Positions 6,001 to 44,873 are shown, counted from the first letter of the stretch. The stretch: 64,000 bases of DNA from Candidatus Omnitrophota bacterium (GCA_028717885.1 JAQUMX010000004.1:2145-66144), one strand, 5' to 3'. Numbers and translations: made by a program. Notes: generated from the letters alone by a model not told the origin.

Positions 6001-9000
6001 TAACTGCTGCCAAAGCCGTAGGGGCGTAAGGAATGGCCTGTACGGTAGTAGCGGAAACCTTATTAGAGTATTTCGAGTTCCCGATCAAATTAAATGCCCG
6101 TACCCTGTAATAGTATTTTGTCTGTTCGGATAATTGAGTATCACTATAGGTATTTTCCCCGGCATTAAGGATTCTGATTTCCGTGAAATTCCCTCCTTCA
6201 ATGCGGCGTTCGATTTTAAACCCTGTCTCATTATCGGAATTATCAACCCAGGCTAAATTAATTCCTGAGCTTGAAATTGCTGTAGCAACAAGCCCGCCCG
6301 GAGCCAGGGGGATCGCCGGATTAACGGGAGCTGTCCCGACATTGGTATATTCGGAATTTCCCGCATCGTTAAAAGCGCAAACCCTGTAATAATATGTGTT
6401 ATCCAAATTGATATTGGTATCATCGAAAATATTGGTGTTTGCAAAAGTAGTAGCAATCTGGGCAAAGCCGCTATCCGGATTAAGGCTACGCTCCACCTTG
6501 AACCCATCTTCATTATTGGCATTATCCACCCAGGTAATCCTGATTTGCGTTGCAGAACTAATACTGACGCCCAAAGCAGTCGGCGCAACCGGGGTACTTT
6601 GCGGCGTTTTAGCATTGACAGTATTGGAATAATCGGATTCCCCGACAGCGTTATATGCGCGTACCCGATAATAGAACCTAGTATTCGGGCTGATACCTAT
6701 ATCCTGGAAGTTAACCACATCTGCATTCACGATCGCGATTACCGCAAATTCCTCTCCTTCTAAATGGCGCTCGACCCAGAAACCTGCTTCATTATTAGCA
6801 TTGTCTTTCCAATTTAAATCGACCTCGCTGGCAGAAACTGCCGAAGCGGTAAGGCCGCTTGGCGCACCAGGAGCGGTATTATACGTAGAGGTTCCGTTAA
6901 TATTGCTGTATCCTGAATCCCCCGCGCTATTATAGGCACGCACGCGATAATAATATGCCGTATTAGACGATAAATCCTTGTCATTATAGTTGGAGATATC
7001 CGCCCCTAGCGTAGTAATTTGCTGGAATTCCGTATCGGGCTTGAGGCTGCGTTCGATTTTAAAACCCTCTTCATTATTAGCATTATCCACCCAGGTAAGG
7101 CCGATCTCTGTCGTAGAAACCGGATACACGCCTAAAGCCGTAGGAGCATAAGGCACGATTTGTGGTGTAGTAGCATCGGCAATATTCGAATAAGGCGATT
7201 CCCCTGCTATATTATAAGCACGCACGCGATAATAGAATTTAGCCAAGGGGCTTAATCCGGTATCGCTGTACCTGTTCTGGCCGGCGCCCACGATGTAAAC
7301 TACGTCAAATTCTGTGCCTTCCATCCGGCGCTCAATCATAAAACCGACTTCATTATGTGAATTATCTTCCCAGTTTAAGTCGATTTGCGTAGCTGAAGCA
7401 GCTACTGCGCTAAGGCCGCTCGGCGCATTAGGAATGCCGCTTGAGGTAGTAGCAGAAATAGTATTAGAGTATTCGGAATCCCCTAAATTATTGAACGCCC
7501 TGACACGAAAATAATATTTGGAATCCGGAGTTAAATTTGTATTCACATAATCCATAACATTGGGGGCAACTAGGCCGATCTGAACGAATTCATTATTTTC
7601 TGTACGGCGCTCGATCTTAAATCCATCTTCATCTTCGGAATTATCCACCCAGGTCAAGGAAATCTGCGTCGGAGAATTTACGCTTGCCCCCAAAGCTGTC
7701 GGGCCAGCGGGCACGCCTTTAGGGGTAGTGCCTTCAGCGATATTGGAATCAGCTGATACCGCTGTCTGATTATAAGCACGCACGCGATAGAAATACTTCG
7801 TGCTGGATTTAGCCTGCGCATCTTCAAAAGATAATGTTTTATTATTGACTGTCGCAATAGTTTTAAAATCGGTTTTTGCAGTACGGCGGTCGATTTTATA
7901 CCCAAGGATGTTTGCGGAAAGGGTAGAAACCGCCAAACCTGACCTGATCCTTGCATCACGAACCCCCTGTTTCCAATGCAACGTAATCCGCGAACTGGAA
8001 ACCACGGTGGCAGTAAGATTAGCCGGCGCGGGAATTGCTGAATCAACCGGGGTTTTTACGATTAAAGCATCTGACCTGCATTCCGTGTATAATTCTCCAT
8101 CGGGCGTGGCATAAACCCGGTAATGGTATTCTGTATTGCCTCTCACGGTTTTATCCGTATAGGAAAGTGCTGTTCTGGCTACTTTATCGTCGATAGTGAT
8201 ATACCCGGCATTCGGAGCCCGGGTAAGGTCTTTGCGCCGGATAATAAAATTCTTTAAGAGATCGCTATTAGGACGGTTAAAATCGTAAGCCCAATTGATA
8301 ATAGCTTCGTTTGCCATAATATTCGTGGCATTCAGATTTGTTGCCGGCGGAGGCAAAACTAAAGCTTCTACCGTAACTCTAATACCATTACTCTCTCCGG
8401 CAGCGTTAATTACCTTAACCAGCCCGGTAACAGCACCAGCCGGGACTTTGCAGGTAATCTCATTGTCTTTCCAGGCCACGATTTCACAGGTTGCCTTATT
8501 TTCAAAAATTACCCTGCCATTTTCTTGCATGCTCCCAAAATCCTTACCCTTAATCACCATCTCCGTTTCCGGATTCACGGTTTGCGGTTCAATACTATGC
8601 ACAACCGGGGCAAATGCGACTCTTCCCAGATAAATATTGTCCTTATCTCTCCAGGCAATCCGGTTACCGAAAATCTTCGGGTAGGAATAATTTCCGCTGG
8701 CCACTTTTACTTCCATATCCCTGGCAATGTCATAAAGGTAAATCCCTTCCCCTCTTACTTTATCATTACCCCAGGTAATTTTTCCCTGATCGATATCCAA
8801 GCCGGATGCATTACCTATATCTGCAGCAACCAGAGTTTCTTTTTTCGCAGCTAAATTATAAAGGTAAAGGTCGCTTATAGAATGGCGCAATGAACGGCGG
8901 AAATCTATCCAGATAATATCGTCTCCGGAAATTTGCGGGGAGTCCGAACTGTAGCGGCAGATTTGTTTTTTACTCTGATCGGTAAAATCATACAAATAAA

Positions 9001-10216
9001 TCCCTCTTGAATTAATTTCCCGGGTAAAATTCCCAAATACCAGCTTTTCCCCATCCAAAGCAAAACTATAGGCGTTTGCCCCCAGAATCCTTCCTTTTTT
9101 ATGCGTAGACAGATTTACCGCATTCAAAGATTTACCGTCGTCCCAAACTACCCTGTTTTGGCCGATTTTTGCCCTGAATGCCTTTCCTGCTATATCTATT
9201 CTTTCTGTCAAACCGGTTGAAAGGTCATAAAGAGAAATATTGCCCTTACCCAGCTGGTTCCTTGTAATCCATACCAGCTTATTCTGGCTAAAATCATCTA
9301 TCGGATGATAAGAAAGGATTCTGTTTTTTTGCTTGGTATTTAAGTCATATTTATAGATGCCTGCGCCCCTGCCGATTTCGTTCCAAACCAAGTTGTCGCC
9401 TTCAATAAAAAGAGAGACCAAGAATTCCGGATAAGAAAATGTATTTATCTTCTTTTCCTTAATATCCACCACCGCGAATTCTAATTCTTTTGTTACGGTG
9501 TGAGTGTCGTCTTTGGCAACAAAAATTACCTTGTATGCTCTACCCTTATCTTTTTGAGAAGGATTCCAGGAAACTATCCCCGTTTGCGGGTTAAAACTGA
9601 ACCTGGGAACCTTGTTTGCATCAGGGCAAGAAAGCTTAAGCCTTCCCTGAACAGTAGCCGGGTCATCGGGGTCTTTGACATTAAGGCGGAACTTTAACAT
9701 CCTTCCCGCTGCCGTACCGTGATTATGCTGATTAACGAACTCCGGGGGCTCGCTTACATTATCAATGGTAAAATTTACTGAATCAGTTAACTCTATTTGT
9801 TGCTGATTCCGGACAGCTTTAACCTTTAAAATCAGAATGTATTCGCCATCTTTTATTCCGGCGGTATCCCAGAAACACAGAGAACTATCCCTGATCATGG
9901 TAGTTGCCGGGCGCTCGAGGATTTTTTTCATTTCCAAGGGGTTTGCCGCTGAGGCATAGTAAAGCTGGTATTCTTTGAAGCCAGCGTCTAAATAAGCGCT
10001 GCCCACGACATTGACCTTATTATTCGGCTCTGTATGCAGATATGCCCCTTCCTGGGGGCTGGAAATATACACCATCTGAGGCAACAATGCGGTTTGCCCC
10101 GGCAACCCCGCAGTGCCGTCGGCAAGGGTATTATAGGTAAAGGAAAATGGCGACAACAAAATAACCGAAATAATAAATGCTAATCCGCGTTTACTGTTCA
10201 ATAAATGTTTTTTCAT
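1..10216 (-). CDS. Giant secreted/cell-surface protein, N-terminal 3,405 codons; the 3' end of the gene lies beyond the left window edge. Signal peptide, two Ig/cadherin-like domains, ~7 beta-propeller-like blades, an IPT/TIG domain, then >=27 FN3 modules interrupted by two copies of an unassigned ~125-aa module
   Basis: Absent from the supplied ORF track because no stop codon falls inside the window. Own reverse-complement translation starts at ATG 10216-10214, preceded by GGAGGA (+ strand cctcctc 10221-10227), and reads MKKHLLNSKRGLAFIISVILLSPFSFTYNTLADG... The frame was checked base by base at several points (7441 downward: SGIPNAPSGLSAVA; 1201 downward: NVLQIHTLSALQVS) and read through to position 2. 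The + strand ORFs listed for 253-9697 are short antisense shadows. Confidence 0.9.
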   Translation of the reverse strand, partial: MKKHLLNSKRGLAFIISVILLSPFSFTYNTLADGTAGLPGQTALLPQMVYISSPQEGAYLHTEPNNKVNVVGSAYLDAGFKEYQLYYASAANPLEMKKILERPATTMIRDSSLCFWDTAGIKDGEYILILKVKAVRNQQQIELTDSVNFTIDNVSEPPEFVNQHNHGTAAGRMLKFRLNVKDPDDPATVQGRLKLSCPDANKVPRFSFNPQTGIVSWNPSQKDKGRAYKVIFVAKDDTHTVTKELEFAVVDIKEKKINTFSYPEFLVSLFIEGDNLVWNEIGRGAGIYKYDLNTKQKNRILSYHPIDDFSQNKLVWITRNQLGKGNISLYDLSTGLTERIDIAGKAFRAKIGQNRVVWDDGKSLNAVNLSTHKKGRILGANAYSFALDGEKLVFGNFTREINSRGIYLYDFTDQSKKQICRYSSDSPQISGDDIIWIDFRRSLRHSISDLYLYNLAAKKETLVAADIGNASGLDIDQGKITWGNDKVRGEGIYLYDIARDMEVKVASGNYSYPKIFGNRIAWRDKDNIYLGRVAFAPVVHSIEPQTVNPETEMVIKGKDFGSMQENGRVIFENKATCEIVAWKDNEITCKVPAGAVTGLVKVINAAGESNGIRVTVEALVLPPPATNLNATNIMANEAIINWAYDFNRPNSDLLKNFIIRRKDLTRAPNAGYITIDDKVARTALSYTDKTVRGNTEYHYRVYATPDGELYTECRSDALIVKTPVDSAIPAPANLTATVVSSSRITLHWKQGVRDARIRSGLAVSTLSANILGYKIDRRTAKTDFKTIATVNNKTLSFEDAQAKSSTKYFYRVRAYNQTAVSADSNIAEGTTPKGVPAGPTALGASVNSPTQISLTWVDNSEDEDGFKIERRTENNEFVQIGLVAPNVMDYVNTNLTPDSKYYFRVRAFNNLGDSEYSNTISATTSSGIPNAPSGLSAVAASATQIDLNWEDNSHNEVGFMIERRMEGTEFDVVYIVGAGQNRYSDTGLSPLAKFYYRVRAYNIAGESPYSNIADATTPQIVPYAPTALGVYPVSTTEIGLTWVDNANNEEGFKIERSLKPDTEFQQITTLGADISNYNDKDLSSNTAYYYRVRAYNSAGDSGYSNINGTSTYNTAPGAPSGLTASAVSASEVDLNWKDNANNEAGFWVERHLEGEEFAVIAIVNADVVNFQDIGISPNTRFYYRVRAYNAVGESDYSNTVNAKTPQSTPVAPTALGVSISSATQIRITWVDNANNEDGFKVERSLNPDSGFAQIATTFANTNIFDDTNINLDNTYYYRVCAFNDAGNSEYTNVGTAPVNPAIPLAPGGLVATAISSSGINLAWVDNSDNETGFKIERRIEGGNFTEIRILNAGENTYSDTQLSEQTKYYYRVRAFNLIGNSKYSNKVSATTVQAIPYAPTALAAVTASASEINLYWVRNSTNETGFKIERSLTPEGNFNLIATVGAGVETYSNKELIADTAYYYRVFAYNAAGNSPFTNIAVATTAQTSPLAPSNLGASAQSPIQIDLKWTDNSNNETGFKIERAIEENGSASQFVEIKIVNADVNAYSDTQVSPVTKYYYRVRAMNLIGDSQYSNTASATTPQGVPAAPTALAAAAASSTEIRLYWVRNSINEDGYKIERKINPDDEFVQIGTVAKGVETFSNTGLIADTTYYYRVRAHNNAGNSAYTNIASATTITGIPEAPSQLLASAAQLPLMQINLNWQDNSHNETGFKIERKIEGGNFEEIRIVNANVYVYSDTRVAEGTKYHYRVRAFNLVGDSANSNTADAVTPVNLPLAPENLTATAIDSEHINLDWQDSSSNETGFKIERRTQQSDFAEIAVAQANATGFADENLSEGTKYYYRIRATNSAGDSAYSNTADATTPIPVPTVPQNLQATAINTSQIDLNWEHSGVNVTGFRIIRGTDGLNFPDTFVINSALERSYHNTGLGEGTAYYYKICALNSTAESGYSEPANAMTLINPPPAPFNLKAQGVSVSQINLSWDDAVQSDHDGFKLERKLSGGVTFTQIATLGAEVRSYDDSDALIEGESYDYRLRASRGNTFSEYSNNAGAITLLSAPSNLIARTVSSSAIDLSWQNNAPTAEGFHIGRSDTAGGNYEIIATVQGADNITYQETNLSAGTTYHYKVAAHKQWIDSEFSNRAQATTQPGIPAAPTGFSGQAVNPEKIDLLWTDNAVNETGFKLERKKEGEAYNLLETLAANTENHSDVNLSEGTKYYYRLRATNASGDSDSVEVNVTTPINPPAAPKDLAAIAASTTQINLEWVDASDNEAAFQLERSTKQNEGFVQIVSLEQNTTVYEDKKASSGTTYYYRIRAINAAGNSAYSNIASATTFMNPPAAPSGFNAKAVSGHQIDLSWHDNADNESEFKLERRSSDSAYAALKVLPPNTTSYSDANLTAATTYYYRLKASNSGGDSDVVEASAATFAPIPSVPTSFTGSTISTTQVNLAWQHNGVNLTGFKVIRGTNGSTFPDVVTVTNASARSYNNTGLNPGIKYYYKICALNSSVESDYAGPIAARTFAITASATDVALRLVKGPPGEYTYTNAFVITNVCSTGGTTWLLTPNQDGTFTSPGGQPQSVLIQGFGFYEASGGLSAGHTLTVRGYINNNKAAGRYAGSYKLQEYIDNVRIDIATIHFSIVVEEGAPIAPSGLSGAAISSGEIDLSWIDNSNNEDGFEIFTATSNNGPFEHVKTVSANATSFRHLTAFNPGSTYYYNVKAYKGTNYSVASNTIAVVMDPPIPAIPGNLTAAAISSNQVRFTWQDNSNNEDGFKIGEGTKSTGPFYDVETVPANATTFTRTSNFSAGTTYYFVIRAYKGVNFSGYSNVSYVGILAAPSDLTATVISGTQINLTWVNNANNLTKFKLERKTDNTAYSQIAMPEIEPTTYSDTNLTPGTKYYYRIRATNDTGDSGYSNEVSVTMPLPAAAPSNLVASSALVNQINLSWTDNANNENGFKLERSAAQANGFTQIANLGANTTAYEDKDLASGMTYYYRIKAFNESGDSAYSNVLQIHTLSALQVSATAVSEVLQLGSDTTLYTYGTGFIITNNGSLTGFRVSANNDATFTPPGGAAQSVTATDFGFQWSTGGINAGASYTVKTFCWNGRPAGIYAGTGKVFESISGKPEIEVATVRYTLDVRKQLAAPTNLRAELTGTPGEVRLTWDDNADNEAGFIIEEKPSGFTQFIELVNWPQPNKTNYITTGYQPGVACTFRVLAYNAANRSAYSNEASVIFPLVAPTNLNLSAVNSQALKLSWKNNTFVSVPEVRIERRTESSAYAQIESIAVAGETQTYNDSSLSANTKYYYRLRCHNANGDSPYSQEVNATTPADGPAAPSNLSAIADAKIAQVSLSWLDNSADENGFKIERRKGSAAFQSIGTVAANVKTYLDASTDLTELSAYEYRVYAYRG
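812..1200 (-). other. Non-FN3 insert module X1 (~125 aa) within the FN3 array
   Basis: Translation LQIHTLSALQVSATAVSEVLQLGSDTTLYTYGTGFIITNNGSLTGFRVSANNDATFTPPGGAAQSVTATDFGFQWSTGGINAGASYTVKTFCWNGRPAGIYAGTGKVFESISGKPEIEVATVRYTLDVRKQ. It lacks the FN3 signature and is homologous to X2 (shared TY..F.ITN ... TF..PGG..QSV ... FGF ... GG..AG ... AG.YAG). Confidence 0.6.
2293..2665 (-). other. Non-FN3 insert module X2 (~125 aa), paralogous to X1
   Basis: Translation FAITASATDVALRLVKGPPGEYTYTNAFVITNVCSTGGTTWLLTPNQDGTFTSPGGQPQSVLIQGFGFYEASGGLSAGHTLTVRGYINNNKAAGRYAGSYKLQEYIDNVRIDIATIHFSIVVEEG. Confidence 0.6.
8365..8620 (-). other. IPT/TIG-like Ig domain of the giant protein
   Basis: PVVHSIEPQTVNPETEMVIKGKDFGSMQENGRVIFENKATCEIVAWKDNEITCKVPAGAVTGLVKVINAAGESNGIRVTV. 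This is the classic IPT/TIG pattern (P.I.SI.P......T...I.G..FG......V.F.......I..W....I.C.VP.G...G.V.V). Confidence 0.7.
8625..9440 (-). repeat. About seven ~40-45-aa beta-propeller-like blades in the N-terminal part of the giant protein
   Basis: Seven units of the form (G/Q)(D/N).(L/I/V)(V/I)W ... (G)IY(L/K)YD(L/F/I).(T/A) ... For example GDNLVWNEIGRGAGIYKYDLNT, QNKLVWITRNQLGKGNISLYDLST, GEKLVFGNFTREINSRGIYLYDFTD, GDDIIWIDFRRSLRHSISDLYLYNLAA, QGKITWGNDKVRGEGIYLYDIAR, GNRIAWRDKDNIYLGRV. Confidence 0.6.
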
Positions 10217-10235
10217 TTTTCCTCCTCAGCAATAT

Positions 10236-10258
10236 TAAATAAAAAACCCTCAAAGGGT
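10236..10258 (-). terminator. Short hairpin plus U-run between the riboswitch terminator and the RBS of the giant gene (a second terminator-like or SD-context element)
   Basis: Minus strand ACCCU-UUG-AGGGU followed by UUUUUAUUU. The stem is only 5 bp. Confidence 0.35.
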
Positions 10259-10282
10259 AACTAGCGCCCAATGAGGGGGAGG

Positions 10283-10319
10283 AAAAATAAAAAAACCCTA
10301 AAAGGCTTTTTTAGGGTTT
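10283..10319 (-). terminator. Intrinsic terminator, the candidate expression platform of the c-di-GMP riboswitch
   Basis: Minus strand AAACCCUAAAA-AAGCC-UUUUAGGGUUU (11-bp perfect stem) followed by UUUUAUUUUU. It lies about 65 nt upstream of the giant-gene ATG and directly after the aptamer. Confidence 0.75.
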
Positions 10320-10321
10320 GA

Positions 10322-10410
10322 TTCCTCTTTGGCAACCCCGCTATCCTTATATTAGGTAAGGACCGGAAGCTTTGCGCCCCAGCATTACTGCTAGTTAGCC
10401 TTTATCAGTA
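10322..10410 (-). promoter_or_regulatory. c-di-GMP-I (GEMM-I) riboswitch aptamer in the 5' leader of the giant surface-protein gene
   Basis: Minus-strand RNA UACUGAUAAAGGCUAACUAGCAGUAAUGCUGGGGCGCAAAGCUUCCGGUCCUUACCUAAUAUAAGGAUAGCGGGGUUGCCAAAGAGGAAU. It carries the conserved GEMM-I blocks as I recall them from the V. cholerae Vc2 aptamer (..GGCAAAC-[hairpin with GNRA loop]-GGGACGCAAAGCCUCCGG ... UAGCGGGGUUACC..). Here these are GGCUAAC, hairpin CUAGCA-GUAA-UGCUGG, GGGGCGCAAAGCUUCCGG, hairpin UCCUUA/UAAGGA, and UAGCGGGGUUGCC. P1 GGC(U)AAC/GUUGCC is complementary. Confidence 0.8.
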
Positions 10411-10452: not shown

Positions 10453-10480
10453 AATATAGCATATTTTTAGGCAATTTCAA
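10453..10480 (-). promoter_or_regulatory. Sigma70-like promoter for the riboswitch and giant gene
   Basis: Minus strand TTGAAA (10480-10475), 16 nt spacer, TATATT (10458-10453), about 40 nt upstream of the aptamer. Confidence 0.5.
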
Positions 10481-10503: not shown

Positions 10504-11025
10504 TTAATCTGCGGCTAGCTGCGAAATGGTAAACGCGCCTTCTAAGAGCTGGGAATTAGGCTTAGTGTTGAGATCCAGCTTCTTAACCTCCAGAAGAGAC
10601 AGGGAATTTTCCAGGCTATAGATGAATTTTATGTAACCATCGAGGCTACCCTCAGCCCTTACATCAATAATAATCTCTTTGTAGAGATCAAGGCTTCTGG
10701 GCGTCTGCGGGCGGATATCGACAATCCGGATATTCGCGTCTTTAGCGAGATTTTCCAATTCGGCTAAGGTATCTACTAAAGTATCTTTTTCCGATAAAGA
10801 TAGCTTTGCGCCCGAAGTGTATTTGTTATTCTGGATCGCCTCTTTCTGGTTCAGCAACCAGAGGTATTTTTTCAACTTTGCCCGGGTGGTAGTAATCTGG
10901 CGGTTTAAAAGCTCGTTTTTCTTAAATACAGGGGCGAGCAAAAAATTAAAAATTAGGCTAAAAATAATTATCGCTACGGTCAAATAAAAGATCAGCTTTT
11001 CTCTTTTGGAAATTATCCTTTGCAT
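10504..11025 (-). CDS. PilO/GspM-like assembly-platform protein
   Basis: 173 aa. N-terminal TM helix, coiled coil and a C-terminal alpha/beta domain. Last gene of the T2SS-like operon, 1 nt after the upstream gene. Confidence 0.7.
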   Translation of the reverse strand: MQRIISKREKLIFYLTVAIIIFSLIFNFLLAPVFKKNELLNRQITTTRAKLKKYLWLLNQKEAIQNNKYTSGAKLSLSEKDTLVDTLAELENLAKDANIRIVDIRPQTPRSLDLYKEIIIDVRAEGSLDGYIKFIYSLENSLSLLEVKKLDLNTKPNSQLLEGAFTISQLAAD

Positions 11026-11026
11026 T

Positions 11027-12460
11027 TTATTTATTTAAGCAGGCAATTTCGAATTCCACGATTTCCCCGGTTTTAGTCTTCCTCTTACTGGCATATCTGA
11101 CTTTAATATTAAAGTTTTTCAGTTCCGGCATTTTCTCCAACGCAGAGACAAAAACAAACACCGGATTCAACTCCTGCGCCTGGCCGCGTAAAATAACTTG
11201 CTTGCCTTCTTCGTAGCTAAAACTGATAAGATACGCAGAACTGGGCAGGGATTTAAAACATCCGGTTAAAAGCTCCAGGCTCGAAGACCTTTTAGCGCTC
11301 TGGCTATCCAATATCTTCGACCTTTTTTCGATTTCTTCTAGCGGCCGGGCATCTTTGCTGACCTTCTCCAATTCTGTTTTTAAACGTTGCAGGTATTTTG
11401 ATTTGTTATCGATGTTCTTGAATGTCGCTACGGACCAAATCAATGCCAAAACTGCGGCAAAAACAAACGTCCGTAAACTTTTTTGGTATACTTTCAGCTG
11501 CTTGCCTTTTTCCCTGACTTCTTCGGGCACAAGGTTAAGGGTATCTTCTATCGTATCCACCCCGAAACCAAAAAGGCTGACAAAAGAACACCCGTAAGAT
11601 TGAGCCTTTTGCGCCAAGGCATCGGAAAGATTAATTTTTTTATAAAAAGGTACCTGCTCAATTGACAAAGGGACCTTTTCTTTTAATAAATTGAAACATT
11701 CTTCCATCATCTTGCCGCTCCCCAAAATCATGATTTTTTGCGGCTGCTCTTTCGAAAATTCTTTTGTATAAGCCTCAAGGGAACGGTTGACTTCCTCGAC
11801 GAAAACAAACTTCCAGTCTTCTCTTGAACGGTTTAGTTTGAAATACCTGCTAAAGGCCATTTTCCTTTTGGAAACTACCACCAGCTCAACCTGATTAAAA
11901 TCGATATCGACGATCATTACCGGAGGATTATCCTGCGGAAAAAGGTAGTTGTATAAATTACATATCCCGTATGATCCAAGATGGATGAAAAATTTTTTTA
12001 TTTTCAGGGCCTTAAATATTTCCAGGTAACGGGAAACAATGTCTTTGTGGACAATAACCAGATTGATCGCTGAATACCCCCCGGTTTGCGTAGAAATCAC
12101 TTGATAGCCGGTAATTAATTCGTCGATCGGATAAGGCAGGTACCTCGGAGCCTGCAAGGAAGCGATCTTTGCTATTTCCTGAGGGGATTGGGCCGGAAGG
12201 ATAGCGTGCCGGCAGGTGGCCTGGTTGCGCGCCAGCGAAAGGATTACCGGGTAATTATTGATCCCGAGCTTTTGGGCAGCCGCTAATAACTTCTGCGTCA
12301 ACTTTTGATTATCGGCGCTTTCTGCCAAAGCTTCAAATTCAAGGCCGAGAAATTCTTTTTTCCCGTCTCTAGAGCATTTTACCGCTTTAAAGGCATTGTC
12401 GGTTATCTGCAGGATAAAAACAGTATTCTTGTTGCCTAGGCTACTCAACAGCTTCTTCAT
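11027..12460 (-). CDS. PilM-PilN fusion / GspL-like assembly-platform protein
   Basis: 477 aa. The ~330-aa N-terminus is actin-like and PilM-type, followed by a TM helix (LRTFVFAAVLALIWSVATF) and a ~120-aa periplasmic PilN/GspL-like domain. Confidence 0.75.
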   Translation of the reverse strand: MKKLLSSLGNKNTVFILQITDNAFKAVKCSRDGKKEFLGLEFEALAESADNQKLTQKLLAAAQKLGINNYPVILSLARNQATCRHAILPAQSPQEIAKIASLQAPRYLPYPIDELITGYQVISTQTGGYSAINLVIVHKDIVSRYLEIFKALKIKKFFIHLGSYGICNLYNYLFPQDNPPVMIVDIDFNQVELVVVSKRKMAFSRYFKLNRSREDWKFVFVEEVNRSLEAYTKEFSKEQPQKIMILGSGKMMEECFNLLKEKVPLSIEQVPFYKKINLSDALAQKAQSYGCSFVSLFGFGVDTIEDTLNLVPEEVREKGKQLKVYQKSLRTFVFAAVLALIWSVATFKNIDNKSKYLQRLKTELEKVSKDARPLEEIEKRSKILDSQSAKRSSSLELLTGCFKSLPSSAYLISFSYEEGKQVILRGQAQELNPVFVFVSALEKMPELKNFNIKVRYASKRKTKTGEIVEFEIACLNK

Positions 12461-12475
12461 TATTTTTTTATGATA

Positions 12476-13474
12476 CTATATTTGCCGCCAAAAGACAATT
12501 TTTTTGTTTTTCCGGTCATAAATAGCACTGATTTTCATCAATGTCCTGCCGGAATTACTGCTCGAATCAATACGAAAAACACTCGATTTAAAAGTAAGGC
12601 TGCCGGCAAGCTTATTTAAAAAATTCCCTTCTGCGGTGCTTAATTGGGCCAGCGTCCTGATATCGCCTTCCCCATTGACCGGTTGGGCATTGCGCAAAGT
12701 AATAATTTTTTCGCTAAGGCTTGCGGCAGCGGAAATTTCTTCTGCATTAGTGGCAAGGGCATTAGCCATGATTGCCAGCGCTTCCGGAGAAACAGTATTT
12801 ACATTTACCGCACTGGATGGGCTATAAACAGTAATGTAATTTTCCAGCTGCTTATAGACATCCCAGGCCTTTTTCTGGTAATCCGCGATTTTTCCTTTGT
12901 AAAAATACTCCAAAAGACTGACTAATTCTGCGCAATTGGAAAACTTATCTTTTTTTAACTGTGGGTAATTTAAAGTTACATCAAGCGCCGGGTCATTACG
13001 CCAGTAAAGAGCGTAATTGACCAATTCGTTTACCCCGCTTTCCACCCCGCCTTTTGCAAATATCCCGGAGAGTACAGCCGGTGAAACAAAGTTAAGATTG
13101 ACCCTACTCTCTTCATCGCTCATGCAATGATAATTATTCCCCTGATCGAGGAAACCAATGGTAAATTTATTTCCTGAGCCCTGGCTTAACTCTATTTCCT
13201 TGAAAATATAATTTTTCGTATCCGGATCTATGCCTATGCTCCAAGGATCAGTCAAACAATCCGAATCCTTTGAAACAGCAGACGCTGCGCTGCTTAAAAA
13301 CAGGATAGCTTTCTCTATTCCTGATTGTGCCAGAAGCTCTGAGGCGAGCCGCTCTTTCTGGGAACGCGCTAATTTCAAATTAATCATGGCGCGGTTTCCT
13401 AAACCGATAACAAAAACTACCAGGATCGCCAATACCCAGAGGCAAATCATCAAAATCGAACCGCGGCGCCTCAT
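12476..13474 (-). CDS. gspK: Minor pseudopilin GspK-like
   Basis: 332 aa. N-terminal hydrophobic helix without Glu5 (MRRRGSILMICLWVLAILVVFVIGL) and a helix-hairpin-helix-like VNVNTVSPEALAIMA motif typical of T2SS protein K. Confidence 0.75.
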   Translation of the reverse strand: MRRRGSILMICLWVLAILVVFVIGLGNRAMINLKLARSQKERLASELLAQSGIEKAILFLSSAASAVSKDSDCLTDPWSIGIDPDTKNYIFKEIELSQGSGNKFTIGFLDQGNNYHCMSDEESRVNLNFVSPAVLSGIFAKGGVESGVNELVNYALYWRNDPALDVTLNYPQLKKDKFSNCAELVSLLEYFYKGKIADYQKKAWDVYKQLENYITVYSPSSAVNVNTVSPEALAIMANALATNAEEISAAASLSEKIITLRNAQPVNGEGDIRTLAQLSTAEGNFLNKLAGSLTFKSSVFRIDSSSNSGRTLMKISAIYDRKNKKIVFWRQI

Positions 13475-14109
13475 GGGTTTCCTCCTAAGGGAATAGCGAT
13501 TGTCCTTAAAAAATCTACGGCAGAAACTTCTTCGCCGTGCCTATCCTTCTCAATCAAGGTAAGTTTTATTCTTACTGCCAAAGGCAATGACTTTTCCTGG
13601 TCCTGGTTCTGCTCCGCCGGCCAGGTATCTTGCCAGGCAATAGGATTATTCGCATCGGAAGACCGATAAGCAAACTCCAGCGAGATGTCTTTTATATCCG
13701 CAGCTAATTCTTGCGGCTCGAGCAGAGAATTTGTTTCGCTCGCCTCCAGCCCACGGTAAAAGTAGCGTTTCAAAACTTTATCCGTAAGTTCATACCGCAC
13801 CCGGCAAGGCAAAATCCGGCTCTCTCCTTTTTCGAAAACCTCGGATACCGAAAAAAATTCTAAACCGGACTGGGCTTTACCGCCTTTAAACCCTGAGCCG
13901 GATTGCATATAACAATAGGAATTCTTTAGATCGCTTTCCATGCGGTTTAAAATTACTTTTGCCGTCTGGTAAATTCCTGCCGCAGATTCCTGTTTTTCGT
14001 AGCTTAGGATCCCGGTCTGCAAGGCAGAATAAACACCCACTACGATCACCGCAGAAAGCGAAACTGCAAGCAATACTTCAATTAAGGTAAAACCTTTTTT
14101 CTTGATCAT
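13471..14109 (-). CDS. gspJ: Minor pseudopilin GspJ-like
   Basis: 212 aa. Prepilin leader MIKKKG|FTLIEVLLAV. Overlaps neighbouring genes by 4 nt. Confidence 0.75.
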   Translation of the reverse strand: MIKKKGFTLIEVLLAVSLSAVIVVGVYSALQTGILSYEKQESAAGIYQTAKVILNRMESDLKNSYCYMQSGSGFKGGKAQSGLEFFSVSEVFEKGESRILPCRVRYELTDKVLKRYFYRGLEASETNSLLEPQELAADIKDISLEFAYRSSDANNPIAWQDTWPAEQNQDQEKSLPLAVRIKLTLIEKDRHGEEVSAVDFLRTIAIPLGGNP

Positions 14110-14495
14110 TGGCTTTGCGCAGGTATGAGGGCTAAGAAATTAAGCATTGATTTCTCCCGGCTATTCTTACTCGGTAAAAACACCTTAAAATCCAACAACA
14201 ATAACCCTTGGTCGGCAGAATCCGATAAAGAACAATTCCAGTCAAACTGACTTTGCTGCAGTGTCGCGGCGCCTTCCTGGAACCTGGTTACGGAGGCAGA
14301 ATTTTTTTGTATTGCGCTAATCTCGAAGATTTTTTCTTCCGCTAAAAATGTAGCGGTAATCATATCCTGTGCCAGCCTTTGCGAAGCAAGTAATGTGACA
14401 AAGGAACGAAAAATAAAAATAATCGCCGTAGAAACTATGGCAATAGTGATCAAAACTTCAATAAGGGTAAACCCTTTATTTGACCTGGATTCCAC
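14106..14495 (-). CDS. gspI: Minor pseudopilin GspI-like
   Basis: 129 aa. Prepilin leader ..SNKG|FTLIEVLITIAIV. Confidence 0.75.
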   Translation of the reverse strand: MESRSNKGFTLIEVLITIAIVSTAIIFIFRSFVTLLASQRLAQDMITATFLAEEKIFEISAIQKNSASVTRFQEGAATLQQSQFDWNCSLSDSADQGLLLLDFKVFLPSKNSREKSMLNFLALIPAQSQ

Positions 14496-14934
14496 CTGAG
14501 GCTCCGCTAAAAATTAATGACAACTTATCCTTGTTCTGGTTTTCAAAAACTAAGCTCGCTTTACCGGTACTGGCATCCGGATAAAAGTAGACTCCTTGGT
14601 CCGCAGCAGGATCAAGCGAAACCTCTACTCCGCGCGGCGCCTGGTAGACCTTGGCAAACCTGCCGCTAAGATTCTTGAATTCCGCATTCTCCAAGGTTAA
14701 AGCCTGTAATTGGCCGCTTTCAATATTGACTGCCAGAAAATAGGTCTTCCCCTGCGAAATAGCGCTATCCTGCAAATAGCGGCTTAAGAAATAAATATCC
14801 TTGGAAAAATTTTGCAGTTCAAAACGGCAAAAGGTACTTTTGAAGCGCGGGAAGGCAACCGCCGAGGCGACCCCGATAATGATAATTACTATAAAAAGCT
14901 CGATAAAAGTAAAGCTTCTAATTTTGCGTATCAT
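14476..14934 (-). CDS. gspH: Minor pseudopilin GspH-like. The track ORF extends to 15039, but the likely start is ATG 14934
   Basis: MIRKIRS|FTFIELFIVIIIIG from ATG 14934. The longer ORF would overlap gspG by 120 nt. Ser rather than Gly sits at position -1 of the prepilin site. Confidence 0.7.
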   Translation of the reverse strand: MIRKIRSFTFIELFIVIIIIGVASAVAFPRFKSTFCRFELQNFSKDIYFLSRYLQDSAISQGKTYFLAVNIESGQLQALTLENAEFKNLSGRFAKVYQAPRGVEVSLDPAADQGVYFYPDASTGKASLVFENQNKDKLSLIFSGASGGIQVK

Positions 14935-15292
14935 TGCAGATTTGGCCTTCGGACTTGGTTTCATCAGGGCCGCTGGAGCAAAGCTTGTATTCTTTGCCGT
15001 CCGGAGAAGAATAGATATATGCTTTTCCCCATGGGTCAACAGGTTTTCTTTTCAGGTACGGCCCCTTTCCGGTTTTGGCGGTCAAATCATCGAGGCTGGC
15101 AGGGTATTTGCCGTTATCCATTTCATACATATCCAAGGCCGTAGCAATATTGGCATTAATATCCGCTTTAGCAGCAGCAATCCTGGCTTCTTCCGAACGG
15201 CCAACCAGACGCGGCATTACCATTGCCGCCAATACTCCGATAATAATTACCACTAACATTAACTCAATAAGCGTAAACCCTTTATTTCTCAT
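14918..15292 (-). CDS. gspG: Major pseudopilin GspG
   Basis: 124 aa. MRNKG|FTLIELMLVVIIIGVLAAMVMPRL..., DMYEMDNGKYPASLDDL and DPWGKAYIY are hallmark GspG motifs. Confidence 0.9.
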   Translation of the reverse strand: MRNKGFTLIELMLVVIIIGVLAAMVMPRLVGRSEEARIAAAKADINANIATALDMYEMDNGKYPASLDDLTAKTGKGPYLKRKPVDPWGKAYIYSSPDGKEYKLCSSGPDETKSEGQICNDTQN

Positions 15293-15314
15293 CGTATCCT
15301 CCTTTAGAGCTAAA

Positions 15315-16523
15315 TTATCTGGCCAGCAAATTAATTTGGAATATTGGTAAAAGCATGGAGATCACGATAAACCCTACGATTATCCCCATTACCAAAATAA
15401 TTACCGGTTCGAGCATCCGGGTTAAGTTCTTTATCGTGGAGTCCACTTCTTTTTCATAATCCTGCGAAATACGCAATAGCGCCTTCTCCAGCGTCCCGGT
15501 TTCTTCCCCTACACTCACAATACTATTTACCATGCTCGGGAATAATTTCGATTCGCTTAAACACCTGGACAAGCTTAAGCCGTCATTGATCCGTTCCCTA
15601 AACCGCAAAAGCTCGATCCGTAAGATTTCATTTTCCGCGAGGGCCGCGGAGATATCCAAAGAAGAAGTAATGGTAATGCCGCTAGAAAGCAGCAGCGCCA
15701 ACGTGTGCATCAGCCGGCTGATTTCGCTCTTTAAGATAATATCCCCGAAAAAAACTAATTTCAATTTTATCCTGTCCCAAACGATTTTATTGGCAACTAC
15801 TCGCTGTGAACGCCGAAACAAGAATACGCCGGTAATTACAATTGCCAGGATCATCCACCAATAAATGCGCAACGCATTAGAAGCTGCAATCAAGGCTCGC
15901 GTAGGAAGAGGTAACACCTGGCCCATATCTTCGAACATTACGGTTAAGCGCGGAATGACAAAGGTGAGCAGTACTATTATCGTGCCAATACCCACCAGCA
16001 TGATAAAAATAGGATAGATCAAAGCCGAACTCAGGGAATCGCTGAAATCCTGTTCTTTTTCCAAAAACCCGCTTAGGCGCTCCAGCGCCCCGTCGATATT
16101 CCCCCCCACCTCACCGGAATGGATGAGCTGTACATAGAGGTTAGAAAAAATTTGCGGGTGATAATTTAGGCTATCCGATAAAGATTTCCCGTCTTTGATC
16201 TTGCTTACGACGTCATTAATCACCGCCCTAAAATATTTATTCGTGGTCTGGCGGGAAATAATATTCAAACCATTGATGATATTGATTCCGGAACCGATCA
16301 GATTGGATAGCTGGCGGGTAAAAACTACGACTTCCTGTTTGCTGACCTTGCGAAAAGGAAAAAAACTTTTTCTTTCCAGGGAGATATTTAGTGCTTCGAT
16401 AGAAATCGGAAAGTAGCCTAATTTCGTAAGCTTGGTGACTGCTTCACTTTCTGATTCAGCTTCGATTTCCCCTTGGATAGTTTTATCGGGTGCAGGCTTG
16501 GCAATATAGATATATTGAGGCAT
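15315..16523 (-). CDS. gspF: T2SS/T4P inner-membrane platform protein GspF/PilC
   Basis: 402 aa with two T2SSF-type repeats and 3 TM segments. The start abuts the gspE stop. Confidence 0.9.
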   Translation of the reverse strand: MPQYIYIAKPAPDKTIQGEIEAESESEAVTKLTKLGYFPISIEALNISLERKSFFPFRKVSKQEVVVFTRQLSNLIGSGINIINGLNIISRQTTNKYFRAVINDVVSKIKDGKSLSDSLNYHPQIFSNLYVQLIHSGEVGGNIDGALERLSGFLEKEQDFSDSLSSALIYPIFIMLVGIGTIIVLLTFVIPRLTVMFEDMGQVLPLPTRALIAASNALRIYWWMILAIVITGVFLFRRSQRVVANKIVWDRIKLKLVFFGDIILKSEISRLMHTLALLLSSGITITSSLDISAALAENEILRIELLRFRERINDGLSLSRCLSESKLFPSMVNSIVSVGEETGTLEKALLRISQDYEKEVDSTIKNLTRMLEPVIILVMGIIVGFIVISMLLPIFQINLLAR

Positions 16524-18245
16524 TTATTCTTCAGGCAATTCTTCCTGCTGAGTTACCCGGATTACTTCGCTAAAGGTAGTAATTCCTTCGATAACCTTGG
16601 CCAAACCATCCTGACGCAATGTCCTCATACCTTCGGAGATTGCTTTCTGTTTGGTTTGCTGAGCTGAAGCGCGGTTCATAATCAAGTCGCGGATCGCCGC
16701 GGAAACCGTGATGATCTCATGGATCCCTGTCCTGCCGTGGAATCCGGTAAACCTGCATTCTTCGCACCCCTTGCCTTCAAAAATATTGAAATCCCTGGCC
16801 CCTAAGTTCAGGTTTTTTCGGATTTCTTCCGTGATTTCCTTGCTTGCGGCTACCGGGGCTTTACATTTCGGGCAGATTACCCTCACTAATCTTTGGGCAA
16901 TCAAACATTCCAAAGAAGATGACAATAAAAACGGCTCAACACCCATATCGATTAACCGGGTCACTGCTCCGGCGGCATCATTGGTATGCAAAGTGGAAAA
17001 TACCAGGTGGCCGGTGAGCGCGGCCCGTATAGTGATCTCTGCGGTTTCATAGTCTCTGACCTCTCCGACCATGATTACATCGGGGTCATGCCTTAAAATA
17101 TGCCGTAGACCCGTTGCAAAACTTAAGCCGATTTTAGGGCTGACCTGGATCTGGTTAATCCCTTTAAGCTGATATTCAATCGGGTCTTCAACGGTAATAA
17201 TCTTCACGGAATCAGAATTGATCCTGGATAGTGCCGCATAAAGCGTAGTGGATTTTCCTGATCCGGTAGGGCCGGTGACAAAAATCACTCCGTGAGGTAT
17301 CTTGATTACTTTTTCGATAATTGCCAAATCTTCCGGCGACAATCCGATATTGCCTAGCTCCAGGAAAAATTGCGGGCTTAAAATCCTCAAATGCACCGCT
17401 TCTCCGAAAGCCGTAGGCATAGTGGAAACGCGTAAATCAAGCTCATGTTCCTCAACCTTAATTTTGATCCTACCATCCTGCGGCAGCCGGTGTTCGGCGA
17501 TATTCAGGTGCGCCATTATTTTTATGCGCGAAACAATCGCCGGGTGGAAATATTTTATGGTTTCGGGGATATTAATGTTATAAAGTATGCCGTCTATGCG
17601 AAAACGCGTGCGCAACTCATCATGAAAAGGCTCCAAGTGCACATCCGTTGCCCGGCTCTTGATTGCTTCAGAAAGAATTTGGTTGACGAACTTGATGATC
17701 GAGGCATCTTCCGCCATATCTTCCAAGTCTTGCGCCTCTTCCGCTTCTATCCTGCTTTCTTTTAGGTCGGATTTCTGCGTAATCATCCTTTCCAGGGTTT
17801 CCGCGCCCACGCCGTAATACCTGCGGATCGCATCCTGGATATCCGACTCGCTGGCCAATACGCCCTTAACTTCCAGGCCCAAAAGCAACCTCAGGTCATC
17901 AAGGGTACGCACATCCAAGGGATCAGTCATGGCGATAATCAGGCTGTTATCTTTAAATTCAAGGGGGATGATTTTATAGTGGCTTGCGAATTTCGCCGGG
18001 ACCTTTTGGATAATCAGGTCTTCGATATCTTTATTCTTCAATTTTATATAGGGGATGTTTAACTGGTGGGAAAGGATCTCAAAAAGACGCTCTTCCTTGG
18101 CAAACCCAAGCTCGACCAAAGTCCGGCAGATAAAATGGCCGCTGTTCCTCTGCTCTTTAAGGCCGATCTCCAATTGCTCAGAGGTAATCACGCCTTCATC
18201 AATCAGGATCTGGCCGATAAGAATGCCGCTTCTGCTGACTACCAT
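16524..18245 (-). CDS. gspE: T2SS/T4P assembly ATPase GspE with an MshEN-type N-terminal domain
   Basis: 573 aa. Walker A GPTGSGKST, a tetracysteine motif (CPKC...CEEC), and N-terminal T2SSE_N repeats. Confidence 0.92.
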   Translation of the reverse strand: MVVSRSGILIGQILIDEGVITSEQLEIGLKEQRNSGHFICRTLVELGFAKEERLFEILSHQLNIPYIKLKNKDIEDLIIQKVPAKFASHYKIIPLEFKDNSLIIAMTDPLDVRTLDDLRLLLGLEVKGVLASESDIQDAIRRYYGVGAETLERMITQKSDLKESRIEAEEAQDLEDMAEDASIIKFVNQILSEAIKSRATDVHLEPFHDELRTRFRIDGILYNINIPETIKYFHPAIVSRIKIMAHLNIAEHRLPQDGRIKIKVEEHELDLRVSTMPTAFGEAVHLRILSPQFFLELGNIGLSPEDLAIIEKVIKIPHGVIFVTGPTGSGKSTTLYAALSRINSDSVKIITVEDPIEYQLKGINQIQVSPKIGLSFATGLRHILRHDPDVIMVGEVRDYETAEITIRAALTGHLVFSTLHTNDAAGAVTRLIDMGVEPFLLSSSLECLIAQRLVRVICPKCKAPVAASKEITEEIRKNLNLGARDFNIFEGKGCEECRFTGFHGRTGIHEIITVSAAIRDLIMNRASAQQTKQKAISEGMRTLRQDGLAKVIEGITTFSEVIRVTQQEELPEE

Positions 18246-18287
18246 AAATTAGATTATATTCCTTATTTGGGAAAAGTAAAGCTGACT

Positions 18288-19302: not shown

Positions 19303-19695
19303 TTATTTGTTTACGTCGGCTTTTATTATAAACCTTATTACGGGATTGTCAAGATTATCGGTATCTACATACACATACTGCATTACCGGCCCGGAATACC
19401 CCTTACTTTTAAATTTAACTTCGATAACCGTACTTTCTCCTGGCGAAAGCGCCTTATCTTTGATCTTCGGAACCGTACAGCCGCAAGAAGCAGTTATGTC
19501 TTTAATCTTCAAAACCTTCTTTGAATCATTATGAAACTTAAATTCATGAGTTACGATTGTACCCTCTTTTATTTTTCCGAAATCCCATAAAAACGGATCG
19601 GCAACCTGCTCCTGCTTTACCTCGAATTTAGCATTCTGCGCCAGGCAGCCGGAAAAAACAAACACCAGGATTAACAAACCCGGGATTCTTTTCAT
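19303..19695 (-). CDS. DUF1573 domain lipoprotein
   Basis: 130 aa. Lipobox FSGC, WDFGKIKEG...HEFKFHN...LKIKDITASCGCT. Confidence 0.75.
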   Translation of the reverse strand: MKRIPGLLILVFVFSGCLAQNAKFEVKQEQVADPFLWDFGKIKEGTIVTHEFKFHNDSKKVLKIKDITASCGCTVPKIKDKALSPGESTVIEVKFKSKGYSGPVMQYVYVDTDNLDNPVIRFIIKADVNK

Positions 19696-19697
19696 TA

Positions 19698-20861: not shown

Positions 20862-20910
20862 AGGGAAAAGTATATAGCGTTTAGCGGCCCCGGTCAATAT
20901 CAAAGTGTAA

Positions 20911-20939
20911 TTGACACCCGGAAATTTTTATATTACAAT
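20911..20939 (+). promoter_or_regulatory. Near-consensus sigma70 promoter of the GGDEF-like gene
   Basis: TTGACA (20911-20916), 17 nt spacer, TACAAT (20934-20939). The TTG that the ORF track uses as a start codon is the first triplet of the -35 box. Confidence 0.6.
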
Positions 20940-20949
20940 GTCGGTTAAG

Positions 20950-44864: not shown

Positions 44865-44873
44865 TAAAATCCT

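Follow-up and report, generated by a model that had tools for sequence, protein, structure and literature searches.

Organization of the operon and of the gene that follows it

The window analysed here is a stretch of 64,000 nucleotides (64 kb) from a bacterium of the phylum Candidatus Omnitrophota (GCA_028717885.1, JAQUMX010000004.1:2145-66144). On its minus strand nine open reading frames (ORFs) are arranged head to tail from 18245 to 10504, with gaps of at most 22 nt and overlaps of 4–20 nt, and encode the inner-membrane and pseudopilus parts of a machine resembling a type II secretion system (T2SS). A giant adhesin-like gene starts at ATG 10216, 287 nt past the last of the nine genes, and continues to the left edge of the window. 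The features are listed in Table 1. Gene identities were obtained from Pfam and NCBIfam profile searches and the RNA aptamer described below from Rfam; the Pfam scan set comprised window ORFs of at least 150 amino acids (aa), from 20.9 kb to the right end.

The order of the operon is gspE-F-G-H-I-J-K, followed by a PilM-PilN fusion and a PilO/GspM-like gene, referred to below as pilO. The gspE and gspF genes abut, gaps of 22, 15 and 1 nt separate gspF from gspG, gspK from the fusion and the fusion from pilO, and overlaps of 20, 4 and 4 nt occur at the H/I, I/J and J/K junctions. The overlap between gspG and gspH is 17 nt if gspH starts at ATG 14934, which is the likely start, a 152-aa orthologue being called in two related loci (L030 and L031); a start at TTG 15039 was set aside in its favour. 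The gene htpX (Peptidase_M48, 2e-37) is located upstream of gspE. An initial annotation, made from the sequence of the window alone, had described nine tightly packed genes, the GspE, F, G and H-I-J-K, PilM-PilN and PilO-type identities, htpX upstream and a giant fibronectin type III (FN3) gene 287 nt downstream, and all of this was borne out by the minus-strand ORF positions and the profile searches.

Table 1. Position and supporting evidence of features in the window and of the small slot protein in related loci.
Feature	Sequence	Position	Strand	Evidence or remark
Giant adhesin-like gene, 5' part	Window	1..10216	-	3405 codons, no stop before window edge
Shine-Dalgarno GAGGAGG of giant gene	Window	10221..10227	-	Predicted pairing with CCUCCCCCUCA at ~10283-10273
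Second hairpin + U-run (T2)	Window	10246..10258	-	Longer equivalent hairpin in L031, L032
Intrinsic terminator T1	Window	10293..10319	-	11-bp stem, AAACCCUAAAA...UUUUAGGGUUU + U-run; conserved in L031, L032, L007
c-di-GMP-I-clan (GEMM-I) riboswitch aptamer	Window	10327..10409	-	RF03167 62.3 bits, gathering score 59, E 2.5e-12
Promoter-like site TTGAAA-16-TGnTATATT for giant gene	Window	10453..10480	-	Conserved in L031, L032
PilO/GspM-like protein, 173 aa	Window	10504..11025	-	T2SSM_b 23.6 > 21.7; PilO 5e-3; GspM_XpsM 4.5e-10
PilM-PilN fusion in GspL position, 477 aa	Window	11027..12460	-	PilM_2 5e-12 (N-terminal), PilN 4e-5 (C-terminal)
gspK-like minor pseudopilin	Window	12476..13474	-	NF037980 T2SS_GspK 1e-19, under cutoff
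gspJ-like minor pseudopilin	Window	13471..14109	-	Pfam T2SSJ 42 > 28; TIGR01711 8.7e-11
gspI-like minor pseudopilin	Window	14106..14495	-	TIGR01707 43.6 vs cutoff 44.35; N_methyl 1.4e-7
gspH-like minor pseudopilin	Window	14476..14934	-	TIGR01708 2e-7, under cutoff
gspG major pseudopilin	Window	14918..15292	-	T2SSG 1.3e-18, N_methyl; TIGR01710 102.5 > cutoff 88.85
gspF/pilC inner-membrane platform protein	Window	15315..16523	-	T2SSF 2e-59, two copies; TIGR02120 372.9, top match
gspE/pilB-type assembly ATPase	Window	16524..18245	-	T2SSE 9e-137, MshEN 2.5e-22
Promoter-like site TTTACT-16-TATAAT	Window	18253..18280	-	In 42-nt htpX-gspE spacer; consensus match only
DUF1573/OS_HP2-family and DsbD-like genes	Window	19303-20903	-	DUF1573/OS_HP2 2e-18
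HAMP-GGDEF protein	Window	20911-22254	+	GGDDF; 2.7 kb upstream of gspE
Family-2 glycosyltransferase genes	Window	39791-46753	-	At least 6 genes
HAMP-HD-GYP protein	Window	57890-59293	-	HHERFDGTGYP
Small protein	L002	7741-8049
Small protein	L003	6038-6376
Small protein	L032	3000-3230
Small protein	L023	~12300-12539
Small protein	L012	14714-15349		PilZ-fused
Small protein	L007	12277-12540
Small protein	L037	9333-9608

The GspE protein scored 617.8 on TIGR02533, just below the cutoff of 630, and 596.5 on the PilB model, and its N-terminus (aa 10–61) contains a predicted MshE-type cyclic di-GMP (c-di-GMP) motif (NF053729, 52.8 against a cutoff of 38) together with an MshEN domain. GspG has the prepilin motif G/FTLIE. 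For each of H, I, J and K the top match was the corresponding T2SS minor pseudopilin model; GspK gave neither a Pfam nor a PDB sequence match and was recognised by the NCBIfam GspK model only, and its N-terminus (G/SILMI) carries no Glu at +5, as is general for GspK. In profile searches against the PDB the fusion matched PilM of Myxococcus xanthus (8e-21) and, weakly, PilN. The GspL model did not match the fusion, all matches being confined to PilM and PilN; GspL is structurally equivalent to PilM plus PilN.

The nearest solved structures are Myxococcus PilB for the ATPase, at 510 bits compared with 430 for Vibrio cholerae GspE, and Myxococcus PilM/PilN for the fusion. Because both proteins are nearest by sequence, among solved structures, to the type IVa pilus (T4aP) of Myxococcus, the mixture of T2SS pseudopilins with type IV pilus (T4P) parts of the PilM, PilN and PilO kind that had been proposed at the outset is a fair description of the operon; with PilB added to the T4P parts, it agrees with both the profile and the structure matches. 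In its order, E-F-G-H-I-J-K-(L)-(M), the operon follows canonical gsp clusters. No pilin model besides GspG scored well in NCBIfam, leaving no PilA-type major pilin, and a PilT-type retraction ATPase was found neither in the window nor in the flanking DNA examined at the 28 genome loci described in the next section.

The giant protein has a signal peptide of the Sec type, a region resembling a propeller and a TIG domain, together with approximately 30 FN3 repeats with a period of 93 aa, and no transmembrane segment was predicted in it.

The species to which the window belongs is not included among the GTDB representative genomes, the nearest being 47% identical. An exact search with the 50-mer at the left end of the window gave zero matches in metagenome_contigs, no identical record was found for the GspE protein, and the sole record identical to the PilM-PilN protein was a 2-kb Logan contig. 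The organism is represented in the sequencing run SRR22315506. Among 96 homologues of the fusion all those with a named source were from Omnitrophota/Omnitrophica, except the weakest ('bacterium').

The secretin module of related loci

No secretin, T2SSC or Peptidase_A24 domain was found by Pfam among the window ORFs of at least 150 aa, and tblastn with the secretin-module proteins of relatives gave zero matches in the 64-kb window. The initial annotation was therefore correct in reporting no secretin, GspC or GspO/PilD gene here; a system that lacks secretin and GspC as a type is not supported by the relatives, whose clusters carry a secretin and a GspC/PilP-like gene. Prepilin peptidase genes are often unlinked in other bacteria.

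Related loci (numbered with the prefix L) were collected in two sets, one genome per species being scanned to give 28 Omnitrophota loci and a metagenome scan seeded with the AAA22 protein giving 80 further loci. In almost all of the 28 genome loci the operon is identical in order. The relatives contain a secretin module, identified in L016 (Secretin, Secretin_N, GspD N0, weak T2SSC and AAA_22), which typically starts about 300 nt past pilO and consists of an AAA22 ATPase of approximately 270 aa (ExeA/MshM/PEP-CTERM-ATPase class), a GspC/PilP-like protein of approximately 210 aa (T2SSC weak at 7e-4, GspC_delta 0.067) and a secretin of approximately 640 aa (Secretin 4e-45, two Secretin_N domains and GspD N0). 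This secretin scored 252 on the PilQ model, 246 on GspD and 187 on MshL (TIGR02519, cutoff 250).

The module lies directly past pilO in 13 of the 28 genome loci (L019 being without AAA22 and the contig of L009 ending inside it), past inserted genes in 4 more and upstream of gspE in 1. Linkage was counted over every locus that holds both pilO and the AAA22 gene (n = 67): the distance between them was at most 700 nt in 54, inserts of 0.7–2 kb and 2–8.7 kb were present in 5 and 7, and AAA22 was upstream in 1. The module is linked in 66 of these 67 loci, and in approximately 17 of the 21 informative genome loci, which were chosen without regard to the module.

The Omnitrophota cluster as a type possesses a secretin and a GspC/PilP-like partner. 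That neither is seen in the window is most probably an artefact of the window edge, since the left edge cuts through the giant gene, and L007 and the pair L005 and L047 (see below) place the secretin module at this point.

A c-di-GMP riboswitch between pilO and the giant gene

The spacer between pilO and the giant gene contains a promoter-like site, an aptamer of the c-di-GMP-I clan, two terminator hairpins (T1 and T2) and the Shine-Dalgarno (SD) sequence of the giant gene. L031 and L032 share the promoter, the aptamer and the two terminators with the window, and the remainder of the spacer diverges. T1 is the probable expression platform of the aptamer. It had been stated initially that no recognisable terminator follows the PilO-like gene, which T1 and T2 refute, and a simple co-transcription of the operon with the giant gene is not borne out either, because a conserved promoter of its own precedes the giant gene and the riboswitch and two terminators gate any read-through from the operon. 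Weak Phe_leader and miRNA matches in the spacer were rejected as reflections of a long U/A-rich helix.

Aptamers at the Rfam gathering score were found right past pilO in L031, L032, L005, L012, L002, L003, L014 and L023, and a model built from the related aptamers added L037, L070 and L007, the last of which scored 33.6 on Rfam against a threshold of 35. The orthologous sites scored 57.6–82 on RF01051 or 60–63 on RF03167. All five visible junctions between pilO and a giant gene have the riboswitch. The aptamer was absent from the 13 genome loci with the module directly past pilO (L028 by the in-house model only) and was also not found in most of the metagenome loci of that arrangement, L081 and L082 having one elsewhere in the cluster. 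These two GEMM-I-like aptamers of distant relatives are located right past the secretin (L081, 8324-8431) and between gspE and gspF (L082, 2282-2383), and a further one in L070 (15391-15488) stands ahead of a small-ORF/PilZ pair approximately 1.7 kb downstream of the secretin.

An alignment of 10 aptamer sequences showed compensatory changes in 12 of 20 base pairs, supporting the P2 and P3 helices. The window aptamer has a GNRA loop, a G before P2, an A after P2 (GC-AA-AGC) and a C after P3, and we take these three nucleotides, by mapping from known published structures, to correspond to G20, A47 and C92 of Vc2. The top Rfam model is the GGC variant (RF03167), yet the window has an A at the variant-defining G position, the meaning of the name 'GGC' being taken here from the Rfam consensus and general knowledge. 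As the three mapped nucleotides are canonical, c-di-GMP is the expected ligand.

A terminator is located within approximately 40 nt past the aptamer in 12 of 13 loci; none was found in L005. In the window, L031, L032, L007, L002 and L003 the 5' arm of the T1-type terminator (AACCCU) has two complementary partners, the 3' arm of the terminator and the conserved GGGUU in the 3' strand of aptamer helix P3. Competition between antiterminator and terminator of this kind is the usual design of an OFF switch, and the layout suggests one here: without ligand the GGGUU of the aptamer would pair with AACCC of the terminator 5' arm and permit read-through, and with c-di-GMP bound the terminator would form and the giant gene would be turned off. 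In the minimum-free-energy fold of the window leader the 5' sequence of the aptamer also pairs with the 3' arm of the terminator, which follows the same logic. A helix of approximately 22 bp is also predicted at 10220-10290 (z -3.1 to -3.9), in which CCUCCCCCUCA and the T1 U-run pair with GAGGAGG, the AUG and the A-rich start of the coding sequence; this anti-SD stretch is specific to the window, L031 and L032 carrying a small ORF in its place.

Giant genes and other contents of the pilO-secretin junction

Giant adhesin-like genes were found past pilO in the window, L031, L032, L005 and L007, representing at least three lineages with differing domain content, and at least three branches of a rough PilM-PilN tree include loci with a giant in this slot. 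In L031 and L032, the closest relatives (PilM-PilN 65% identical to the window), the gene past pilO is orthologous to the window giant, 56–68% identical, and cut by the contig end. L007 contains on a single contig the operon, a riboswitch, a small ORF, a gene for a 2553-aa multi-Ig/PKD/FN3 protein and AAA22. In L005 the operon and a riboswitch are followed by a giant FN3 ORF cut by the contig end. L047 comes from the same metagenome; its contig opens within a giant FN3 ORF, past which AAA22, a GspC-like gene and a secretin are encoded. Its first 99 nt, at the very end of the contig, match an internal part of the L005 giant gene with 100% identity, compared with 77–80% for other repeats, which is the pattern expected from an assembly break within one repetitive gene. 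Other large ORFs lead into AAA22 in L107 (at least 1932 aa), L034, L068 and L041. The link between operon and giant gene proposed initially was accordingly found again in L031, L032, L005 and L007. Most loci combine a complete cluster with the absence of a giant gene, which does not bear out the initial suggestion of a machine dedicated to the giant protein.

In L047 and L041 the last domain of the related giants is a plain FN3 repeat, with no anchor after it. At the C-terminus of the 2553-aa protein of L007 (20200-20323) a poly-Gly run, GCFIATACYGSP and a basic helical tail were observed, which resemble a sorting or anchor signal. A join of L032 to L062, which carries a secretin module and comes from the same metagenome, was rejected, there being no overlap and the start of L062 not lying inside a giant gene. 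A type I route for the giant protein via the HlyD/ABC genes at 59-64 kb was also discarded, these being ABC-2 type exporters approximately 50 kb away with no link to the giant gene.

In many relatives a small conserved protein with the motif RVIxxLNRxxxDFLDKLGKDxLFS is encoded directly past the riboswitch (Table 1), and no match to it was found in Pfam, NCBIfam or the PDB. PilZ is fused to it in L012 and follows it in L002 and L003. The window has lost it, and there the giant gene comes directly after the riboswitch. Other contents of the slot include PilZ proteins and response regulators (L002, L003), FN3 and CARDB proteins (L012) and LolA-like and hydrolase-like proteins (L022), and nearly all of the non-regulatory slot proteins have signal peptides. 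More widely, genes for proteins with signal peptides cluster in and around the locus. L012 has two riboswitches in one slot, the first (12128-12254) heading two signal-peptide FN3/Ig proteins and the second (14563-14643) heading the fusion of small protein and PilZ and a CARDB protein.

Further genes connect the clusters with c-di-GMP. A response regulator and a GAF/HD_5 (HD-GYP-type) gene are located past the secretin in at least six loci (L006, L016, L018, L023, L025 and L028). The window encodes a HAMP-GGDEF protein and a HAMP-HD-GYP protein, candidates for the synthesis and breakdown of the riboswitch ligand.

Interpretation and alternative explanations

The nine genes are best explained as the inner-membrane and pseudopilus half of a T2SS-like machine that is conserved across Omnitrophota, with its secretin module beyond the left edge of the window and with the giant gene as a riboswitch-controlled unit that has its own promoter; we give this interpretation a probability of about 0.7. 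The machine would consist of a GspE/PilB-like ATPase, the GspF platform, a scaffold of PilM-PilN and the PilO/GspM-like protein, the GspG pseudopilin and the H-I-J-K tip set, and in this genome the giant FN3 gene would have been placed into the junction between pilO and the secretin module. The giant protein would reach the periplasm by Sec and, as we infer, then be released or displayed through the machine. The association of giant protein and machine is recurrent and probably functional, and the link, most simply that of cargo, is suggested because giants occur in at least three branches and the other non-regulatory slot proteins mostly bear signal peptides.

A broader proposal can be made somewhat short of even odds, namely that the junction between pilO and secretin is a cargo slot gated by a c-di-GMP riboswitch, into which different lineages install different giant adhesins or secreted proteins, gated by the same messenger that the ATPase senses via MshEN. 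The MshEN domain of the ATPase, the PilZ proteins and the pair of response regulator and HD-GYP protein by the secretin would then sense or degrade the messenger of the riboswitch. If this is true, the system is a secretion machine with cargo genes embedded in its operon, each of them riboswitch-gated.

An alternative to a secretion machine is an adhesive surface pilus of the mannose-sensitive hemagglutinin (MSHA) or T4aP type, with the giant protein as an adhesin under shared regulation that leaves the cell by another route or is borne on the fibre, and with c-di-GMP coordinating pilus and adhesin through MshEN and the riboswitch, respectively. The nearness of the ATPase and the fusion to M. 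xanthus PilB and PilM/PilN fits such a pilus, as do the MshE-type motif, the resemblance of the AAA22 ATPase to the ExeA/MshM class, the slightly higher score of the relatives' secretin on PilQ than on GspD and an order of pilMN-pilO-(P-like)-secretin that mirrors pilMNOPQ. It is a serious alternative but unlikely, as the score of the major subunit exceeds the GspG equivalog cutoff and none of the T4aP pilin models gives a good score, the four minor subunits best match those of T2SS, the order from E to M is that of gsp clusters and neither the window nor the flanks of the 28 genome loci contain a PilT-type ATPase. A lower probability still is given to adjacency without function, the junction being a permissive insertion site and the giant gene a passenger: the heterogeneity of the slot contents, the unrelated domain make-up of the giants and the empty slot of most loci are what such a site would leave, against which different giant or large secreted proteins have entered the same slot in at least three lineages, the non-regulatory proteins there nearly all carry signal peptides, the c-di-GMP riboswitch consistently heads the slot and T2SS-like loci beside Omnitrophota giants have been reported independently (West-Roberts et al., 2023).

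It is very improbable that this operon truly has no secretin anywhere in the genome and that its inner-membrane and pseudopilus components serve the giant protein as a dedicated export or display device, either by themselves or by way of an unrelated outer-membrane route. The left edge of the window falls within the giant gene, at the point where L007 and L005 with L047 have the module, and the linkage of the module in nearly all both-marker loci and most informative genome loci speaks against the idea, although none of secretin, GspC and prepilin peptidase occurs in the 64 kb and two genome loci, L010 and L024, have no linked secretin within 10 kb. Genes for a Wza-like protein, a beta-barrel porin and PagL in the window indicate that the organism has an outer membrane, for which reason a pseudopilus machine would need a pore.

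Several observations weigh against the interpretation as a T2SS-like machine with the giant protein as its cargo, or against parts of it. As the ATPase and PilM/N/O are nearer to T4aP than to Gsp proteins and the relatives' secretin scores higher on PilQ than on GspD, a pilus instead of a secretion piston is possible. The giant protein is at most a candidate substrate of the machine, and giant adhesins elsewhere usually depend on type I or type V secretion. We infer from relatives that the secretin module of this genome lies left of the window edge, downstream of the giant gene, and unlinked arrangements do exist, since L010 and L024 have no module within 10 kb of pilO. The OFF logic of the riboswitch is drawn from sequence complementarity, and at the first riboswitch of L012 (L012a) the terminator overlaps the 3' end of the aptamer, which suggests the opposite, ON, logic there. 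The minimum-free-energy fold masks the SD sequence and the AUG in every predicted state, that of the read-through RNA included, which fits the proposed switch poorly.

Neighbouring genes and additional observations

Upstream of htpX the window contains genes for a DUF1573/OS_HP2-family protein and a DsbD-like membrane protein with a thioredoxin-like domain; none of these three genes was found in the flanks of the 28 genome loci (E<1e-5). The rightward part of the window encodes a tetratricopeptide repeat (TPR) protein and an exopolysaccharide cluster with a Wza-like exporter, a sugar transferase, many glycosyltransferases, Wzm/Wzt, O-antigen ligases and a Wzz-type kinase, in addition to UvrD, the ABC-2 exporters and the GGDEF/HAMP and HD-GYP proteins already mentioned. 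The N-terminal halves of the family-2 glycosyltransferases are near-identical, indicating a recent tandem amplification in the exopolysaccharide cluster.

One metagenome-assembled genome, GCA_028717765.1, holds two copies of the operon, L030 and L031, whose PilM-PilN proteins are 77% and 65% identical to that of the window; these are either two paralogous clusters or the result of a bin that mixes two related populations. A fluoride riboswitch (56 bits) was observed downstream of the operon in L010 (14860-14921) and has no relation to the slot.

Relation to published work

Omnitrophota are ultrasmall, probably predatory or epibiotic bacteria of which there is no pure culture, attachment to prey being the presumed role of their giant surface proteins. 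Giant genes of the phylum were described as lying, in general, between a conserved secretion locus upstream, which comprises more than 10 subunits and includes gspD, gspE and gspF, and pilZ genes downstream, and adhesion to prey or host was proposed for their products (West-Roberts et al., 2023, bioRxiv 10.1101/2023.11.21.568195); a 2026 preprint repeats the observation of giant gene and secretion locus (10.64898/2026.06.07.730766). The general association is thus already known. A riboswitch, or regulation of the giant gene by c-di-GMP, is mentioned in neither preprint, nothing relevant was found in the literature searched on Omnitrophota riboswitches or on the combination of c-di-GMP riboswitch, T2SS and adhesin, and the riboswitch-gated slot appears to be unreported. 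The locus turns the general remark of giants near secretion genes into a specific, testable arrangement with a defined slot, and it corrects the tempting misreading of a 'secretin-less T2SS', which most likely arose from a window that ends in the giant gene. If the logic of the riboswitch is confirmed, c-di-GMP would be central to the decision to attach or detach in this phylum.

Comparison with known systems

When compared with the canonical T2SS of Proteobacteria (gspC-O), the operon shares GspE, GspF, an equivalog-level GspG, H-I-J-K with a Glu-less GspK, a GspM-like protein and the order from E to M, and the Omnitrophota relatives add a secretin with N0 and Secretin_N domains. There are clear differences. 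The PilM-PilN fusion, matched by T4P models only, replaces GspL, and the ATPase is nearer to PilB and carries the putative MshE-type c-di-GMP motif. In the relatives the equivalents of C and D come after M and not before E and are preceded by the AAA22 ATPase, their GspC is only weakly recognisable (7e-4), the locus has no gspO, and outer-membrane genes of the system are not seen in the window.

T4aP (PilB, PilC and PilMNOPQ; M. xanthus, PDB 3jc8) provide the solved structures nearest in sequence to the ATPase and to the PilM and PilN domains, and the Omnitrophota relatives show the order pilM-N-O-(P-like)-secretin. The operon differs from these pili in that its locus encodes neither a major pilin of the PilA type nor PilT/PilU, in the fusion of PilM to PilN and in its Gsp-type pseudopilins. 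With the MSHA pilus of Vibrio the operon has in common an ATPase with a predicted MshE-type c-di-GMP motif above the curated cutoff, and an ExeA/MshM-class AAA22 ATPase adjoins the secretin in the Omnitrophota relatives; the secretin of the relatives falls below the MshL cutoff (187 versus 250), and gene order and pilin set differ. MshI of the MSHA system is probably a PilM-PilN-like fusion. Control of MSHA by c-di-GMP via MshE has been published (PMC7096442).

The riboswitch resembles the c-di-GMP-I riboswitches of adhesin, pilus and motility genes in its gathering score, the covariation of P2 and P3, its GNRA loop and its terminator platform, and differs in that the GGC model scores best although an A replaces the G of the variant, and in its place within a T2SS-like cluster ahead of a giant adhesin gene, for which no counterpart was found in the literature searched. 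The loci of West-Roberts et al. (2023) belong to the same phylum and likewise have a secretion or pilus locus immediately upstream of the giant gene, with pilZ parts nearby. Their giants exceed 30,000 aa and contain many transmembrane segments and SecA-like domains, and their locus includes rcpC and a peptidyl-prolyl isomerase (PPIase), in contrast to the window, where an operon of the gspE-M type is followed by a string of FN3 domains with a signal peptide and without transmembrane segments.

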